From: a virus
Taxonomy: Duplodnaviria > Caudoviricetes
Length of the DNA stretch: 40,263 nt
Strand: one strand, 5' to 3'
IMG/VR virus record: IMGVR_UViG_3300036797_000049
Span: 1 to 40,263 of that record
Made by a program: the position numbers and the translations under genes. The notes beneath the pieces were generated by a model. That model had not been told where the DNA came from. It saw only the letters and a list, made by a program, of their open reading frames with translations, and did not search any database. This document shows positions 203 to 9,541 of this stretch, one piece after another; the first letter of the stretch is position 1; each line of letters starts with the position of its first letter.

Positions 203-231
203 TTGACACGTTCACCGGCCGATGTCATCTT
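203..231 (+). promoter_or_regulatory. Putative sigma70 early promoter
   Basis: Perfect TTGACA at 203-208, 17-bp spacer, TG-extended weak -10 (TGT-CATCTT, 223-231), with an AT-rich upstream tract. Confidence 0.55.
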
Positions 232-258: not shown

Positions 259-276
259 TCGGGTTCGCCCGTACCT
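259..276 (+). repeat. 18-bp hairpin repeat copy 1 (TCGGGTTCGCCCGTACCT)
   Basis: Identical to copies at 1028, 1283 and 1529. CGGG-TTCG-CCCG stem-loop followed by a GGAG RBS and ATG at 298. Confidence 0.97.
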
Positions 277-297
277 CTGAATGGAGAAACAAAGCAA

Positions 298-993
298 ATG
301 GAAACCCTATTCGCACTCGAATCGCAGGCCATTAGCGCGACATCCGCAACGGCATCAAGCAACCTCACCTTCGAGTTTCCGCAACCTCTCACTGAAAAGT
401 ATCGTCCTGAAACGATCGATGCCTTTGTTGGTCTGGAGAAGCCGCGTCGCATATTCGCGAAGCTAGTCGCGAACCCGTACCCTTCAGCATGGCTTTTTGT
501 TGGTCCTTCTGGGACTGGTAAGACTACGCTTGCCATGGCGATCGCGGCCGCGATTCCGGCAGAGGTTCACCACATTCCCTCGCAAGAATGCAATCTCGAA
601 AACATCGAACGGGTTCGACGTACATGCCAATATGTACCGCGTCTCGGCTTCAAGATGCATCTCGTTCTGATCGACGAAGCCGATCGTATGACGGATGCGG
701 CGCAAGTCTCTCTTTTGTCTAAGCTTGATTCGACAAACTTTCCGCCTAACACAATTTTCATATTCACTTGCAACGGTACAGACCGCTTGGAACCTCGATT
801 CCTCTCACGTCTTCGTACGGTGGAGTTTTCCAGCTATGGAATCGCCAAGGAAGCGGCCGCACTACTGGCGCGCATCTGGGAAGCTGAAGCGAATGGCGCG
901 CCAGCTCCGAATTTTGCGCGCATCGTCAAAGAGTCGAATAACAACATTCGCGAATGCCTGATGCGCTTAGAAACGGAACTAATGTTGGCCTGA
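298..993 (+). CDS. Clamp-loader clade AAA+ ATPase (RFC-small/DnaX/RarA-like), lacking the C-terminal collar
   Basis: LTEKYRP N-terminal motif, Walker A GPSGTGKTT, Walker B VLIDEAD, SRL (SRC-like) arginine finger. Start reassigned to ATG 298 because of the GGAG RBS. Confidence 0.88.
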   Translation: METLFALESQAISATSATASSNLTFEFPQPLTEKYRPETIDAFVGLEKPRRIFAKLVANPYPSAWLFVGPSGTGKTTLAMAIAAAIPAEVHHIPSQECNLENIERVRRTCQYVPRLGFKMHLVLIDEADRMTDAAQVSLLSKLDSTNFPPNTIFIFTCNGTDRLEPRFLSRLRTVEFSSYGIAKEAAALLARIWEAEANGAPAPNFARIVKESNNNIRECLMRLETELMLA

Positions 994-1022
994 TTCGCAG
1001 GCCATTCGCAGGCCATTCGCAA
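990..1022 (+). repeat. Second 11-bp repeat array (3 units)
   Basis: ctgattcgcag|gccattcgcag|gccattcgcaa, same ATTCGCAG core as 61-160. Confidence 0.9.
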
Positions 1023-1025
1023 CTG

Positions 1026-1080
1026 AATCGGGTTCGCCCGTACCTTCTAAACGCACCGAAACAACAGGAGAAAAACAATG
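1026..1080 (+). repeat. Hairpin repeat copy 2 plus RBS module
   Basis: aatcgggttcgcccgtaccttctaa...acaacaggagaaaaacaATG, nearly identical to 1281-1335. Confidence 0.97.
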
Positions 1081-1281
1081 CAAGCACGTAACGCTATCAT
1101 GGTCGCTCAACTTGACATTTGCCAGCTCAGGATTCAGGTACTCATCGGACGCGCGCGAATGCTCACACAGCTTAGTCTCGACCTTTCGAATGCGTCCTAT
1201 CGTGATGCGCAACAGATCGAGATGCTGCACACTTACCTTCACCGGATCACCTACAAAAACTTCAACTCCAGCACCTTCTAA
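1078..1281 (+). CDS. Small hypothetical early protein (67 aa)
   Basis: Strong AGGAG RBS; bounded by repeat copies 2 and 3. Confidence 0.8.
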   Translation: MQARNAIMVAQLDICQLRIQVLIGRARMLTQLSLDLSNASYRDAQQIEMLHTYLHRITYKNFNSSTF

Positions 1282-1335
1282 ATCGGGTTCGCCCGTACCT
1301 TCTAACTCACCAGAACAACAGGAGAAAAAACAATG
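1281..1335 (+). repeat. Hairpin repeat copy 3 plus RBS module
   Basis: aatcgggttcgcccgtaccttctaactcaccagaacaacaggagaaaaaacaATG. Confidence 0.97.
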
Positions 1336-1527
1336 ATTGACACTTCCGCGCGCGATCGCATCCTTGCTATTCACGAAGCAATGACGAAGGTTTGGACACT
1401 CGTTCTTAACGTCGACGAGTTCGGCTTTGTCCCACCAGAGAGCGCGATCGAACTCGACCGCGCGCGCCGATGCATTGACACTGCACAATCACACCTTCAG
1501 AGTGCAGCATTCCCCACAATCAAGTAA
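1333..1527 (+). CDS. Small hypothetical early protein (64 aa)
   Basis: Strong AGGAG RBS; bounded by repeat copies 3 and 4. Confidence 0.8.
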   Translation: MIDTSARDRILAIHEAMTKVWTLVLNVDEFGFVPPESAIELDRARRCIDTAQSHLQSAAFPTIK

Positions 1528-1528
1528 A

Positions 1529-1546
1529 TCGGGTTCGCCCGTACCT
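1529..1546 (+). repeat. Hairpin repeat copy 4
   Basis: tcgggttcgcccgtacct directly after the TAA of the previous gene, followed by AGGAG and ATG 1564. Confidence 0.97.
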
Positions 1547-1563
1547 CGACAGGAGAAACAAAC

Positions 1564-2484
1564 ATGGCAGAGAAAACGCACATCTACGAAGTCATCACCG
1601 ATCGAATCATCTCCAGCTTAGAAAGCGGGGTGATTCCATGGCGGAAAGAATGGAAGACAACGGGCGAGGGATTCGGCGCAATGCCCGTAAACTTCGCCAC
1701 AAAGAAACCCTATCGCGGTATCAATGTCCTAACTCTGCTTTGCTCGGGTTACTCCTCGCGCTACTGGATGACCTACAAACAGGCTCAGGAGTTGGGTGGA
1801 CACGTTCGCAAGGGTGAAAAGGCTTCGCCCGTTGTCTTTTGGAAGTTTTCGAAAGAGACAGATAAAAAGACGGGTGAGGATAAAGAGTTCGCATTCGCGA
1901 AGCAATACAGCGTCTTCAACCTCGAGCAAATAGACGGACTCGAACAGGTCGACGGAGTTAAGCCGACACTTCCCTTTGATGCTCCACAATTCGACGCGAT
2001 CGCAGAGGCGGCCGCGATCGCCGACAAATACCTTACCAGCGCCAATCATCCGACACTCGGCCATGGCGGAAACAAAGCGTATTACTCACCGGGCGCCGAT
2101 CACGTTCAAATGCCAATACAAACGGCCTTTAGCACATCGGCCGCGTATTACTCCACTCTCTTCCATGAGTTCGCACACTCCACCGGAAACAAGTCGCGAC
2201 TCGATCGGGTGGAGCTGGTTAAGATGGCTGCATTAGGCGATGAGGATTACAGCAAAGAAGAGTTAGTCGCGGAGTTCACGGCCGCGTTTCTGTGCGCCGA
2301 GTCGGGATGCGCGAACGATGCGATTTTGACCAACGCGGCCGCGTACATACAAGGTTGGATGCGATCGCTAAAGAATGATCGGACGCTGGCGATCTCGGCC
2401 GCACAAAAGGCGCAACATGCGGCCGACTATATCCTCGATCGCAAGGCCTCGGCCGTCGCTACTGAAACGGAGGTGACAGCGTGA
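1564..2484 (+). CDS. ardC: ArdC-family antirestriction / ssDNA-binding protein with zincin-like domain
   Basis: ITDRII..LE.G..PW.K.W, Y.GIN...L, W.TYKQAQELGG.VRKGEK, YYSTLFHEFAHSTG (HExxH) and YSKEELVAE motifs. Confidence 0.93.
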   Translation: MAEKTHIYEVITDRIISSLESGVIPWRKEWKTTGEGFGAMPVNFATKKPYRGINVLTLLCSGYSSRYWMTYKQAQELGGHVRKGEKASPVVFWKFSKETDKKTGEDKEFAFAKQYSVFNLEQIDGLEQVDGVKPTLPFDAPQFDAIAEAAAIADKYLTSANHPTLGHGGNKAYYSPGADHVQMPIQTAFSTSAAYYSTLFHEFAHSTGNKSRLDRVELVKMAALGDEDYSKEELVAEFTAAFLCAESGCANDAILTNAAAYIQGWMRSLKNDRTLAISAAQKAQHAADYILDRKASAVATETEVTA

Positions 2485-3374
2485 GAGGCATCCCGTACAC
2501 ACCTCAAAGCGTCGATCTCTTCGGTAGCGTGGCCGTCGATATGGTCGCCATGCAACAGTCTTACAGCGCCGACACAATAGGGATGCATGGCAAGATTCGC
2601 AAGCCTTTCAAGATGGACGGCGCTGAATGGACCTCGACAGGTTCGTGCGGTTCTGGTGCTGGCGATCGCATCCATTCCATCTATCGCCTGTGCTCACTGC
2701 CAGAATTTAGCGGTAAGCCGACAACCTACAAAGAAAAGATTCACGGCGATGGCAACCATGGGGAATCAGCACGGAAAGACCCCAACGGTTTCTATCACGG
2801 CATGACGGTCCACCATGGCGGGAAGTGTTACGTCATCACCGGGCCGGAATATTCGATCGAAAGCAGTCCAGAAGACTATCAGGACTATTTGCGCGCAACC
2901 TACCACACCGATCGCAAAGAAGACGAAGACGCGATCGCGGATGAGTACGACGATGACGACGACGATCTCGAGCTGGACGACGACGACGATCTCGAGCTGG
3001 AGGATGACGACGACGAAGACAGCTACACCGGCGCGCGAGATCCTCGCAATGATCGACCTAACACTGATCTAACAGACGAAGACGACGAAGACGATTACAA
3101 TGGCGAACCGATCGACGACGACGACTTTATCGACGAGACTCGCATCGCGGTCGCGATCGCGCGGCTCACCAGCTCGACACTCTGCAAGTGTGGCCACGCG
3201 GAAAAAGATCACTTCAACACGGATGAATGCGGTTGCCACTGGTCAGAAGGTAGCGGCAAACATTACCGCAATTGCGAATGTGACGCCTTTGAACCTGCTG
3301 ACGAATCGCCTGCTATTTCTGATTACATCCCCCACGAACCTACGCAGCTCGGCCTCTTCGGAGGCGCGCTGTGA
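2481..3374 (+). CDS. Hypothetical protein with long Asp/Glu tract and C-terminal Cys/His cluster
   Basis: GTG overlaps the ardC stop with a GGAGG RBS; DDDDDDLELDDDDDLELEDDDDED tract; CKCGH...H...CGC...CEC cluster. Confidence 0.8.
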   Translation: MRGIPYTPQSVDLFGSVAVDMVAMQQSYSADTIGMHGKIRKPFKMDGAEWTSTGSCGSGAGDRIHSIYRLCSLPEFSGKPTTYKEKIHGDGNHGESARKDPNGFYHGMTVHHGGKCYVITGPEYSIESSPEDYQDYLRATYHTDRKEDEDAIADEYDDDDDDLELDDDDDLELEDDDDEDSYTGARDPRNDRPNTDLTDEDDEDDYNGEPIDDDDFIDETRIAVAIARLTSSTLCKCGHAEKDHFNTDECGCHWSEGSGKHYRNCECDAFEPADESPAISDYIPHEPTQLGLFGGAL

Positions 3375-3406
3375 GCCCAAAACCCTTTCACCCTTTGGAG
3401 GATTCA

Positions 3407-3682
3407 ATGCCTCAGCTTGTAGCCCTTCCGCCTGCCGCGACCGATCATTCCACCCTTTGGGACACTAACCCGGTACTCGCCGCACACTGCGATCTGGTGG
3501 ATGCCTCCACCAGTCTTCGCATCATGCTCCTGGCCGCTCGATCGCAAAAGCGGCTTCACTTCGCGGCCGAACTCGAGCGCGTCATCCAGACGACCGACCG
3601 CGTTAAGTCCTACCTGCGCACTCAGGTACGCGCCAGCTCTACACCCATGGAGTCCACCGATGACACAAGCAGAACAGCCTAA
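3407..3682 (+). CDS. Hypothetical protein
   Basis: GGAGG RBS before ATG 3407; alternative GTG start at 3371. Confidence 0.65.
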   Translation: MPQLVALPPAATDHSTLWDTNPVLAAHCDLVDASTSLRIMLLAARSQKRLHFAAELERVIQTTDRVKSYLRTQVRASSTPMESTDDTSRTA

Positions 3683-3821
3683 GCCGCATAAGTTCGTCGC
3701 GATCGACCGCAACGTGATGCGCGGCAAAGATGAAGCGATCGCGCGCGCTGTCACTCACAACATGGCCAAGCGCATCGCTAACGCCCTCAACCGCTACACT
3801 CCCAACGCGAAAGGATACTGA
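3660..3821 (+). CDS. Small basic hypothetical protein (53 aa)
   Basis: GGAG RBS before ATG 3660 within ORF 3501..3821; fills the operon. Confidence 0.65.
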   Translation: MTQAEQPKPHKFVAIDRNVMRGKDEAIARAVTHNMAKRIANALNRYTPNAKGY

Positions 3822-3826
3822 TTCCA

Positions 3827-4132
3827 ATGCAAAACACTTACCGCAAGCTGAACGCCTCCGCAATTCTCCGAACGGCACGCATCGCAGTGATGAAAGCAGG
3901 CAACGCCGAAATAGTTGTAAATGTGCCAGGACGCGAAGACTTCGTGATTGCGATGCTCGGACAGCGCGAAGATGGATGGGGCGGGGCGATCTCCGACGCG
4001 CTTGTGCTCTCCGATGTCGAGGGTGTCATCTGCCGAATGGCGACGACACGCGCCAGTCTCGCGAGGCTCGAGGAGTTGACCAAGGAATGCGAACTGCAGC
4101 AGGCCGCTGAAAACACGGCGAAAGGATACTGA
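3827..4132 (+). CDS. Hypothetical protein flanked by a 16-bp direct repeat
   Basis: AAAGGA RBS; GCGAAAGGATACTGAT at 3807-3822 and 4118-4133. Confidence 0.75.
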   Translation: MQNTYRKLNASAILRTARIAVMKAGNAEIVVNVPGREDFVIAMLGQREDGWGGAISDALVLSDVEGVICRMATTRASLARLEELTKECELQQAAENTAKGY

Positions 4133-4614
4133 TGTCGACGCTGGTTATTGTTCCCTGTGGTCAACAGAAGGTATGGGATAAAAACTTTATGCTGCCGCCG
4201 ACCTCGGCGCAGGATGCTTACACGTCGACACTCTTCCGGCTGCATCGCAGGTTCGCAGAGTCGCGCGGCGCGTGCTGGTGGATTCTATCGGCAAAGTATG
4301 GTTGGCTCTGGCCTGATACACCGATCGAAGACTATGACCGAAAGTTTACGGCCGATCAGCTCAACCAAGTTTGCAGCCTGACGCGCGACTTCGATCATCT
4401 TCGATGGAGTAACCGGGCCGCTGCCATGCTGAGCACCTACCGCGATCGGACGGGCATCCGCATCGACCGCGTCGTCCTCCTGGGCGGATGGCTGTATCGC
4501 GAGGTTGCTAAAAGAGAGCTGCGCAATCTGGGCCTGACGATCGAGGAACCCTTCGCAGGCCTCGACCTATTCCAGACGATGAAGGCGCTTAAAGGGGCTC
4601 AACTCTCCAACTAA
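4132..4614 (+). CDS. DUF6884-like protein
   Basis: LVIVPCG..K.W, A.DAYTS.LF and W.ILSAKYG.L.PD..IEDYD motifs typical of DUF6884. Confidence 0.75.
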   Translation: MSTLVIVPCGQQKVWDKNFMLPPTSAQDAYTSTLFRLHRRFAESRGACWWILSAKYGWLWPDTPIEDYDRKFTADQLNQVCSLTRDFDHLRWSNRAAAMLSTYRDRTGIRIDRVVLLGGWLYREVAKRELRNLGLTIEEPFAGLDLFQTMKALKGAQLSN

Positions 4615-4627
4615 AACCAGTACACGC

Positions 4628-4670
4628 AAAACGGCGGCGAATCTCATGCGGATTCGCCGCCTTTGTGTTT
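4628..4670. terminator. Intrinsic terminator, probably bidirectional
   Basis: 11-bp stem ggcggcgaatc/gattcgccgcc (4633-4661), followed by tttgtgttt and preceded by aaaa; sits between convergent operons. Confidence 0.85.
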
Positions 4671-7594: not shown

Positions 7595-8961
7595 TACTTG
7601 GCCTTGCTCGCCTTCCCTGGCTTCTTCTTGCCGCCCTCGGTCTCCGCTACCTCAGCGACAGCAGGCTCGGCCGGCAGGTCCTCGGTGTCGTTGTTCGCGA
7701 TCACCTCGCCGTCTTCCATCACGATTCCCACCTTGCCGCTCGTGTCGACAACCTCGATCCAGATCTGATAGTCGCGCGCGATCGCCATCTGCTTGACGAT
7801 CTCCATGCTCTCGTCATCAAGCAAGCTGCCGTCTGTGATCCGGATGATCCGCACCTGCGGGTTGCTGGCCATGGCGATCGCCAGGGAGACGCGAAGCTGC
7901 TCGGCACCGCTGGCCTGATTCAGTGGCAAGTCGTTATAAGTAACCTCGCCATCCTTGAACCCGAGGCCTTCGATCGGCATCTCGGCGCGCGCGATCGCCT
8001 CCTCCTTCGTCGTCTCGCGGTTCTTCATCGACTCGGTGAGCCTGTCGGCCTCGGCCTGCTTCGCCTCGAGCTGCTGCTGCAACCGCTCCTTCTGGGTCCG
8101 CTTGTCGATCTGCGAGTTGGTCGCGCGCGCGTTCTCGATCTCCTCCTGCAGGGCCGAGACATCGAACGGCTGGCCGATGACTACGGCCTTGATCTCCTTC
8201 GCGTCCTCTTCGATCGCCTTCCTCTTTAGCTCCGCTTTCTCACGCAGCTCGCGGGCTCGCGTCTCAAGCTCTTCGGCCTCGACGATCATGTTCATCACTT
8301 CGTCGCGGTGCTTATTCAGGGCATCATGCCGACGCGCCAGTTGTAGCCTCTGCTCTGCCAGCTTCGTATTCTCCTCGCTGGCCGTCGTCATCATGCCAAG
8401 CAACCTCGAGATGTCGATCGGCTGCTCGGGCAACTCCTTCACGAAGCTGATCGCGTCGATCTGCGCCTGCAGCTGCTTTACCTCGCGGTTCACCTGCGTC
8501 CGCGCGTCATAGTCTTCTTTGTTGGCGGCGTCGATCGCGGTCGGGTCAACGTCCAGCCTCGAGAGACGCTGCAGCTCGGCCGCCTGCTCCTTCGGCTTCA
8601 TGCGCGTAAAGGCCAGCGGGTCGAACGAGAGATCGCCGAAAAGCTTGTCGAGCAACTGCTGCGGCTTCTGGAACCGTTCGCCCTTCTTTCCTTCGACGAT
8701 CAGCACATTTCCGTTGGGCGTGAACTTACGCAGCACGCGATAGTCGCCCAGGTCGATAAAGATCCCGCCCTTGTCTGTACCCTTGCGGATCGGCTGGCTC
8801 GGCAGGTCCTCGGTGCCGGCGAGAGCATACAGGATGGAGTCGAGCACCGACGTCTTGCCCGATCCGTTGCGGCCGGTCAACTCGATAACGTGGCCCTTGG
8901 GTTTGATCTGTACGACCTTCAGCTTTTTGATGTTCTCGGCCTGAAATTCAATGATCTTCAT
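7594..8961 (-). CDS. SMC/SbcC/RecN-like coiled-coil ABC ATPase
   Basis: MKI....ENIK start, Walker A GRNGSGKTS, long coiled coil, signature ASGAE, Walker B/D-loop-like IRITDGSLLD. Confidence 0.88.
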   Translation of the reverse strand: MKIIEFQAENIKKLKVVQIKPKGHVIELTGRNGSGKTSVLDSILYALAGTEDLPSQPIRKGTDKGGIFIDLGDYRVLRKFTPNGNVLIVEGKKGERFQKPQQLLDKLFGDLSFDPLAFTRMKPKEQAAELQRLSRLDVDPTAIDAANKEDYDARTQVNREVKQLQAQIDAISFVKELPEQPIDISRLLGMMTTASEENTKLAEQRLQLARRHDALNKHRDEVMNMIVEAEELETRARELREKAELKRKAIEEDAKEIKAVVIGQPFDVSALQEEIENARATNSQIDKRTQKERLQQQLEAKQAEADRLTESMKNRETTKEEAIARAEMPIEGLGFKDGEVTYNDLPLNQASGAEQLRVSLAIAMASNPQVRIIRITDGSLLDDESMEIVKQMAIARDYQIWIEVVDTSGKVGIVMEDGEVIANNDTEDLPAEPAVAEVAETEGGKKKPGKASKAK

Positions 8962-8996: not shown

Positions 8997-9323
8997 TTAC
9001 CGGCTAGCTCCGTCGACGATGTCGAGCGCCAGGGTGAGGCCTTCGCGCTTTGCATAGGCCGACAGGATGGTGCGTATCGAGCGCGCCGTGCGTCCCTGCT
9101 TGCCAACGATCTTGCCGATGTCCGAAGCTGCTGCGCTGACGCGGATTACAGGGTTCGATCCGAGTCCGCAGACCATGACGTCGACGCGCAACTCTTCAGG
9201 GTTGTCGATAAGCGAAGAAACCATCGTTTCAACCAAGTTGCTCGCGCCGCTAAGCTTCATCTCATGCCTGATGCGACGAGCTGCTTCTTCCAAGGGCTTT
9301 ACTGCTTCCAATATCGCGTTCAT
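8997..9323 (-). CDS. khpA: KH-domain RNA-binding protein, KhpA (UPF0109/YlqC) family
   Basis: LVETMVSSLIDNPEE...DIGKIVGKQGRTARSIRTIL closely matches the KhpA signature with an intact GxxG loop; ATG 9323 is coupled to the upstream stop. Confidence 0.9.
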   Translation of the reverse strand: MNAILEAVKPLEEAARRIRHEMKLSGASNLVETMVSSLIDNPEELRVDVMVCGLGSNPVIRVSAAASDIGKIVGKQGRTARSIRTILSAYAKREGLTLALDIVDGASR

Positions 9324-9541
9324 TCGGCCTCGTCCTCTTCCTCTTCTTCTTCTTCGTCTTCCGCCGTTGCCTTCGAGCTGAGCGTTACCCAATCGAGATC
9401 GAGTTCTTCTGCAATTTCATCCATCGAGATCGCCTGCTCGGCCTTGTCTTCGGCCTCGATCCGAGTCTCGGCCTCGACCTCGCGCTCAAGATCGACGGTC
9501 TGGTGGACCTCTACTTTTACCTTGACTTTCCAAGTGGCCAT
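9320..9541 (-). CDS. Small highly acidic protein
   Basis: GGAGG RBS; C-terminal EDEEEEEEDEAE; first gene after the promoter. Confidence 0.8.
   Translation of the reverse strand: MATWKVKVKVEVHQTVDLEREVEAETRIEAEDKAEQAISMDEIAEELDLDWVTLSSKATAEDEEEEEEEDEAE

Follow-up and report, generated by a model that had tools for sequence, protein, structure and literature searches.

A repeated hairpin leader and its candidate cognate small protein in the entry operons of soil phages

Among the Aca regulators, Aca2 dimers bind two hairpins in the 5' untranslated region and block translation, motifs between genes are also reported, and Aca1 binds its RNA motif without translational silencing in reporters (PMC13551039, in its accessible part). 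Our study concerns a short repeat and a small gene in a 40,263-nt virus record (IMG/VR record IMGVR_UViG_3300036797_000049; hereafter the window, meaning this whole stretch of DNA), which carries portal, terminase, capsid and adaptor matches in Pfam and PHROGs. Four identical 18-mers stand before genes of its left-end operon and are one phage's version of a wider leader family, here called type A, and the same operon encodes a basic protein of 53 aa. Judged from sequence, what is new is an RNA motif family with a named candidate cognate protein. We propose, at a probability of about 0.55, an Aca2-like feedback loop in which the 53-aa protein binds to the hairpins in the mRNA and represses ArdC, a clamp-loader-like ATPase and further cargo at the level of translation. 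The operon layout, with a strong early promoter, anti-defence cargo, hairpins at the ribosome-binding sites (RBSs) and a small basic protein encoded downstream, matches the description of Aca2.

The type-A pair would work like an Aca system but, on the predicted fold and the features of its operon, does not appear to be a member, as it lacks a helix-turn-helix (HTH) or ribbon-helix-helix (RHH) topology, a promoter operator and an identified acr gene. Aca regulators are HTH or RHH proteins, whereas the 53-aa protein is predicted to be beta-beta-beta-alpha, which is neither. Aca operons have an inverted-repeat DNA operator that overlaps the promoter, whereas here the promoter spacers of 19 loci share, by eye, only the -35 and -10 boxes and the type-A hairpin sits after +1. 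They also hold an acr gene; here Pfam and PHROGs named ArdC, DUF932 and an AAA+ ATPase among a cargo of mostly unknowns, and no Acr, an Acr-specific library not having been searched. A scan of 34 further motif-headed genes gave 11 ArdC-like proteins, 3 DUF932 proteins and 20 unknowns. The number of type-A copies, up to five or six per operon, is a further difference from Aca operons.

T4 RegA, the MS2 coat hairpin and Mu Com are phage translational operators in which a small protein acts on an RNA element at the RBS. To our knowledge, none of these three systems repeats a covarying operator in front of several cistrons of the same operon, and we found no sequence or fold match to any of them. 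The literature search returned no paper on the motif or the protein, with most subscription papers and all supplements outside its reach.

Other described repeats were also compared. The establishment-gene regulatory sequences of pLS20-family plasmids, EGeRS1 and EGeRS2, resemble the leader in that variable establishment genes, ardC among them, carry a conserved repeat, and in that alternative regulatory systems are swapped among relatives (PMC8708921, accessible text). However, EGeRS1 is described there as 400–600 bp with multiple inverted repeats, whereas the sequence shared in the window is 18–58 nt, and EGeRS2 as a promoter with DNA operators for an RHH repressor, whereas the type-A element is about 20–45 nt long and lies in the transcript, in phages. 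Stoperators share with it a short repeat of constant orientation, present at the promoter and at further sites and served by one phage protein, but the accessible part of PMC9283540 describes them as asymmetric, monomer-bound DNA sites spread genome-wide. Type-A elements are covarying hairpins of variable length, with 6–11 nt between their half-sites across the curated copies, and those of the window lie in one operon. The pseudoknotted STAXI, another repeat that occurs near antirestriction genes, is distinct from the type-A element (PMC2864571, likewise accessible in part).

The repeated leader and its structure

The first-pass annotation had placed four mismatch-free copies of the 18-mer in the window, each ahead of a GGAG RBS, and its account of their positions was borne out. 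All four lie on the plus strand (starts 259, 1028, 1283 and 1529; chance expectation 0.05), GGAG follows the stem of copies 1–4 by 11, 26, 25 and 10 nt, stems 3 and 4 start 2 nt after the preceding stop codon (35 nt for stem 2), and copies 2 and 3 form near-identical modules (52 of 58 aligned columns). The labels given to the clamp-loader-like ATPase and ArdC also hold (Table 1). The description of an invariant CGGG-UUCG-CCCG hairpin stood in part: the 18-mer alone is predicted to fold in this way at -5.2 kcal/mol, a value that does not set it apart from shuffled sequences (z -1.4), and the UUCG loop is constant within the window genome but differs among relatives. No further copy was found in the window, even when 3 mismatches were allowed, and Rfam gave no gathering-level match in the window, the motif itself staying without a match up to E 5, in a search that very short motifs may escape. 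An antisense partner in the genome was rejected, as the minus strand holds no match at 3 mismatches; short partial complements were not sought.

An exact scan with the 16-nt core returned 20 stretches, five of them from two contigs of about 40 kb in which two and three copies stand ahead of the same ATPase; the remaining 15 were isolated matches that lacked leader context and were set aside. Further loci were gathered through the ATPase and not through the motif, and those of low ATPase identity were dropped in each search round (3 of 87, 73 of 75, and 66 of 80, two of the 66 being duplicates). ATPase genes that come first behind a TTGAC promoter often have a hairpin leader in front of them, and three repeated leader types were distinguished among these loci, namely A (that of the window), B and C. 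The type-A set comprises 60 hand-curated copies in 28 loci and omits visible copies in L084, L102, L298 and L301. A loose motif pattern was useless as a strand control (78 plus calls against 41 minus), and a stricter rule made 3 reverse-strand calls in 108 loci. Copies are near-identical inside a genome and different between genomes. The same gene order with a decayed repeat, a pattern in relatives that would have spoken against the first-pass interpretation, was not seen.

Throughout the curated set, the leader keeps a GG/CC stem (P1) that changes in a compensatory manner, an AC linker and, close by, a Shine-Dalgarno (SD) sequence; the loop is free. In 18 copies of the same geometry, with a 4-nt loop, the four core pairs were formed in 72 of 72 cells; two pairs were invariant, one occurred in all four Watson–Crick forms and one in three, and stem covariation was 0.353 compared to 0.085 in shuffles, figures that do not amount to a probability because the copies were picked as hairpins and are related. 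The loops take 25 different sequences of 3–7 nt, and 6 of 13 distinct tetraloops are UNCG or GNRA compared to an expected 12 of 256 (p about 1e-5). Hairpin length varies even between copies of one locus, in L295 and in L314. AC follows within 5 nt of the stem in 57 of the 60 copies, and a second helix (P2) begins directly past P1 in 51, often covering the SD, with a modest effect (SD pairing 0.60, against 0.52 with the linker shuffled).

The placement of the leader points to RNA. The stem lies no more than 15 nt from the SD in 49 copies, whereas the gap from the upstream stop ranged from 2 to 90 nt in 40 copies, which indicates anchoring to the translation start that comes next. In 19 of the 28 loci a copy follows a TTGAC promoter, and 22 promoter-proximal copies sit at about +3 to +23, none on the promoter itself. 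From these sequence features, we infer that the element acts in RNA rather than DNA. Two further ideas were rejected: stop-anchored translational coupling as a rule, given the gaps of 2 to 90 nt, and mimicry of a tRNA acceptor or RNase P substrate (stem plus ACCA), given that 7 of 18 sequences lack the fifth pair and that ACC is followed by a variable base.

It is conceivable, if unlikely, that a dimer of the 53-aa protein binds the element as a double-stranded DNA palindrome, CGGG-N4-CCCG, possibly besides RNA. The element would then serve as an operator where it lies directly past +1, and at internal copies as a roadblock in the manner of a stoperator. Positions +3 to +23 are a usual place for an operator, the predicted dimer is symmetric and palindromic changes are indistinguishable from stem covariation. 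Mycobacteriophage repressors, moreover, halt elongation at many sites (PMC9283540, same part). However, the spacing between half-sites differs inside single genomes, tetraloops that are stable in RNA are over-represented, the AC tail is present on one side only and the internal copies hug the SD and not the upstream stop.

Binding to RNA could also activate or stabilize, with the AC(C) linker held single-stranded, P2 opened and the SD freed. Mu Com on mom mRNA is an example of such activation, many copies have a P2 that starts in the linker and covers the SD, and the co-occurrence described below fits equally well. We nevertheless hold this to be rather unlikely, as an activator encoded after its targets would delay entry genes, the layout resembles that of repressive Aca operons and P2 is weak.

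The first-pass annotation had offered RNA processing, a protein-bound site and homology for swapping as explanations of the repeat. Processing found no positive evidence, with no Rfam match to the motif and with true twister ribozymes additional to it in 5 of 12 relatives scanned. In its fullest form, this explanation makes the motif a host-nuclease cleavage or 5'-stabilizing signal that yields monocistronic mRNAs, as RNase III does with T7 early mRNA, and links the small gene for some other reason. The twisters in relatives' operons indicate that processing does happen there; yet they accompany the motif and do not replace it, copies at about +3 leave almost nothing to cut off, a stem of 4–5 bp is far shorter than an RNase III site and the gene linkage is left unexplained, which makes this account very unlikely.

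Of the protein-bound options, translational control is the best supported and now has a candidate protein, whereas the boxB version is disfavoured because the loop is free. A lambdoid boxB has a conserved GNRA-like loop that is read by the protein. A promoter-proximal hairpin together with a small basic protein acting like lambda N would suit antitermination, but the type-A loops are not conserved, processive antitermination needs no copy per gene, the sole plus-strand terminator-like site inside the operon is weak and lies within ardC, and the protein gene comes last and not first. We find this scarcely credible.

A small protein encoded with the leader

The gene for the 53-aa protein belongs to the same operon as the leaders and lies beyond the region that had first been annotated. 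The 42 window genes were compared with nine related genomes, which were covered almost completely (G004, 40 of 47 kb; G014, 60 of 68 kb). The query ATPase and the 53-aa open reading frame (ORF) were the only genes to match all seven type-A genomes. One of these, G010, shares no virion gene matches with the window and yet matches the 53-aa ORF, and none of the type-B and type-C genomes among the nine does. Three other genes were rejected as binders: the KH-domain gene at 9000–9392 (minus strand), an RHH-like gene (38318) and an HTH-like gene (7214), which had matches in 2, 3 and 2, respectively, of the 7 motif-bearing genomes. The KH-domain gene, which is KhpA-like (PF13083, E 2e-17) and recurs in G001 and G007, turned up in 2 of 15 records searched.

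Among 92 deduplicated ATPase loci, 12 had motif and gene, 5 the gene only, 3 the motif only and 72 neither. For the 47 loci flanked by 100 nt or more upstream and 2.5 kb or more downstream, the counts were 11, 1, 0 and 35, so that the motif was present in 11 of 12 loci with the gene and in 0 of 35 without it; the lone gene-only locus, L039, shows a variant leader tail by eye. Retrieval by the small protein alone gave 24 loci, 17 of them new and 16 distinct, and of these 16 the motif was found in 7 by rule and 13 by eye, often repeated 4–6 times with new stems. Leader and gene occur without the ATPase in L293, L295, L297 and L298. In 25 of 25 loci the gene stands downstream of all copies, and up to 3 kb of variable genes may separate it from the motif.

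At least two pairs of close relatives show genuine exchange of cargo at the leader. When the window is compared with L021, homology begins at copy 1, stops near the ATPase end and resumes exactly at copy 4, and the genes between the ATPase end and copy 4 differ; between L192 and L193, it stops just past the SD of an internal leader and resumes inside the small-protein gene. Other pairs in the comparison were less clear-cut. In L022 (G002), at about 900–1870, an insertion bounded by inverted repeats lies alongside a duplicated ATPase 3' end and leader, and holds what we take to be a short transposase-like remnant; the duplication is a possible snapshot of how leader copies arise.

Swapping homology as the purpose of the repeat was thereby upheld in part, since homology does break at the leader in these two pairs; swapping alone, however, accounts neither for stem covariation and selection on the fold nor for the linked gene. 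A broader version would make the repeat merely a good translation-start module that was duplicated and serves as homology for swapping, with the small gene co-inherited. The breakpoints and the near-identity of copies within, and not between, genomes speak for it. Compensatory changes and tetraloop choice, in contrast, show structural selection, and motif and gene stay together across unrelated backbones, without the ATPase and across as much as 3 kb of variable genes. We therefore regard mere co-inheritance as highly improbable.

The small-protein family comprises 472 clusters at 50 % identity, and no Pfam, NCBIfam or significant PHROG match was found for the 53-aa protein. The conserved domain lies at the C-terminus; it is basic, with a median net charge of +6 over 150 members, and its helix carries Arg, Ala and Leu residues that do not vary. 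Both fold predictions gave three strands and one helix (predicted local distance difference test, pLDDT, 80 and 83.5), a topology that, if correct, would make HTH or RHH impossible. Compared with nucleic-acid-binding folds (dsRBD-like, PC4-like and DUF1508-like), the best structural matches reached a VIA Z of 4.7 (root-mean-square deviation 5.1, 47 aligned) and 4.6 (4.1, 50 aligned). Foldseek returned no match at E 0.001, and fold searches, a PDB sequence search and the Atlas gave no clear relative. The predicted homodimer scored 0.78 against 0.01 for the best control, a mark that 20 of 30 solved pairs attained, as did 1 of 23 single chains; runs agreed in 100 % of contacts, with pLDDT of at least 76. 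The model supports, but does not show, pairing via strand 3 and the helices. A tree of the small protein was unreliable, with 49 columns and some rows badly trimmed.

Proposed control of the operon

Under the proposed repression, a host sigma70-type promoter would fire on phage entry and the marked genes would be translated at once, because the regulator is still absent and P2 is weak. The regulator, encoded downstream, would then build up and, as a predicted dimer, bind the stem and AC linker and hold P2 over the SD, which would end the burst of expression. As a by-product, the repeated leader would form a junction for cargo exchange, at which a new gene arrives already under control.

Several observations weigh against this proposal. 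The motif rule was written after the motif had been seen, and hand-picking the 60 copies as hairpins inflates the pairing statistics. The outer pair is unpaired in 7 of the 18 sequences, SD pairing is under 0.3 in 13 of 60 copies, giving modest support to P2, and a two-fold symmetric dimer would suit a DNA palindrome too. The Fisher p of the co-occurrence (7e-10) overstates the case because the loci are related: on a quick ATPase tree, 6 changes of the gene label were needed, of which strong branches force only 2, which indicates that the loci are not independent. The gene stands without a visible motif in L085, L302 and L304, on contigs that are cut upstream (L302 and L304 begin shortly before the small-protein gene), and with half a motif in L309. 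Conversely, the motif stands without the gene in L072, L074 and L113, with only 325–1370 nt of downstream sequence; the metagenome-assembled genome (MAG) that holds L113 gave no small-protein match, and a sample of 401 genomes from the class to which the L113 host belongs did not yield the protein either. Lastly, binding need not mean repression, since Aca1 binds its RNA motif without silencing reporters.

In L309 itself, at about 7860–8130, the promoter runs straight into half a hairpin and the small-protein gene, as though a deletion had removed all cargo.

Operon features, other leaders and meaning

The hairpin array opens a plus-strand gene run (298–4614) between a promoter-like site and a terminator-like hairpin (Table 1). 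The promoter-like site was absent from a strict promoter scan because its -10 box is weak.

Table 1. Predicted and observed features of the left-end operon (window coordinates)
Feature	Position	Strand	Basis or remark
Predicted sigma70-type promoter (TTGACA, 17 nt, CATCTT)	203–231	+	Sequence; start about 237
Leader copy 1: P1 260–271, UAC linker, weak hairpin P2 over SD 283–286	259–286	+	
Clamp-loader-like AAA+ ATPase, 231 aa	298–993	+	PHROG 168, E 2e-30
Leader copy 2: P1 1029–1040, SD 1067–1070	1028–1070	+	
67-aa ORF, variable cargo	1078–1281	+	Relatives: none found
Leader copy 3: P1 1284–1295, SD 1321–1324	1283–1324	+	
64-aa ORF, variable cargo	1333–1527	+	Relatives: none found
Weak promoter-like site near leader copy 4	1475–1503		
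Leader copy 4: P1 1530–1541, SD 1552–1555	1529–1555	+	
ArdC anti-restriction protein (ArdcN + MPTase)	1564–2484	+	PF08401 + PF18818
53-aa basic protein (predicted beta-beta-beta-alpha), candidate cognate regulator	3660–3821	+	
Terminator-like hairpin, ends plus-strand operon	4633–4661	.	Scored on both strands

A word-indexed protein search with the 67-aa and 64-aa ORFs returned only themselves, and these ORFs are anti-defence candidates by context alone. The ORF that follows ardC (2481–3374, 297 aa, no family found) has a long Asp/Glu-rich tract and a Cys-rich C-terminus, and from this composition is a possible DNA mimic. The ATPase has only about 230 aa, aligns to the N-terminal two-thirds of loader profiles and usually heads the entry operon, on which grounds it could be a stand-alone inhibitor of host loaders. 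Over the whole window, CGATCG is the top 6-mer (99 occurrences) and GCGATCGC the top 8-mer (24 occurrences). Short repeats of TCGC/CCGC type in an 11-bp phase occupy 42–160, 309–347 and 993–1020 and recur in L021, L022, L024, L030, L038, L075, L076 and L190, lying upstream of the left-end promoter and before some internal leaders at both type-A and type-B loci; these may be phased DNA-binding or genome-end signals.

The type-B leader is a bulged hairpin ending in the SD (L024/L080, L029, L030/L031, L037 and L038), with up to 7 copies per locus, as in L038 (e.g. L038:6064–6366). Type-B loci lack the 53-aa gene, and a protein of about 101 aa near the operon end, of no known family, is common to 3 of the 5 distinct type-B loci and found in no other locus, the remaining two being short contigs; it is the candidate type-B regulator, and a search with it yielded no new locus. 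The type-C leader, about 45 nt ending in GAGCAGCTAA, has four matches each in L082 and L257 and one partial match in L023; neither an Rfam match nor a cognate protein was found for it. L021, L022, L193, L303, L306 and L311–L314 have another repeated element between genes, about 28 nt long and pseudoknot-like by eye, which lies upstream of SDs and is sometimes fused behind the type-A hairpin. Equivalent entry operons contain intergenic Twister-P5 ribozymes that score above the Rfam gathering threshold (L066:2110–2165, L301:2224–2285, L306:1830–1893, L311:2153–2213, L313:1819–1889 and L314:2087–2151) and in L306 and L313 lie directly upstream of a type-A leader; Rfam found none in the window.

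Close ATPases were found in a Candidatus Angelobacter MAG and another Acidobacteriota MAG (4 of 64 parts scanned), and in 4 of 401 genomes of the order of Candidatus Angelobacter, thin evidence on which the host of these soil phages is probably Acidobacteriota.

In summary, we tentatively suggest, as a reading that we favour less than the single feedback loop, that the entry operons of soil phages and elements are run by interchangeable RNA-only operator–repressor pairs, in which a new dimeric domain of about 42 residues (the family of 472 clusters) reads the type-A hairpin and the unrelated protein of about 101 aa reads the type-B bulged hairpin. As the operator would also be the swap junction, every captured gene would be controlled on arrival, and the motifs would mark unexplored anti-defence genes. 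With both partners named, the pairing is directly testable. If the proposal is true, Aca-type feedback on anti-defence operons would extend to a family without known relatives that appears to act on mRNA, gene by gene, and very small orthogonal translational repressors would be supplied, of which a 20-nt operator and a 53-aa repressor would make a compact tool for synthetic circuits. Motif and protein together offer a guilt-by-association handle on the unknown entry genes of uncultured soil phages.

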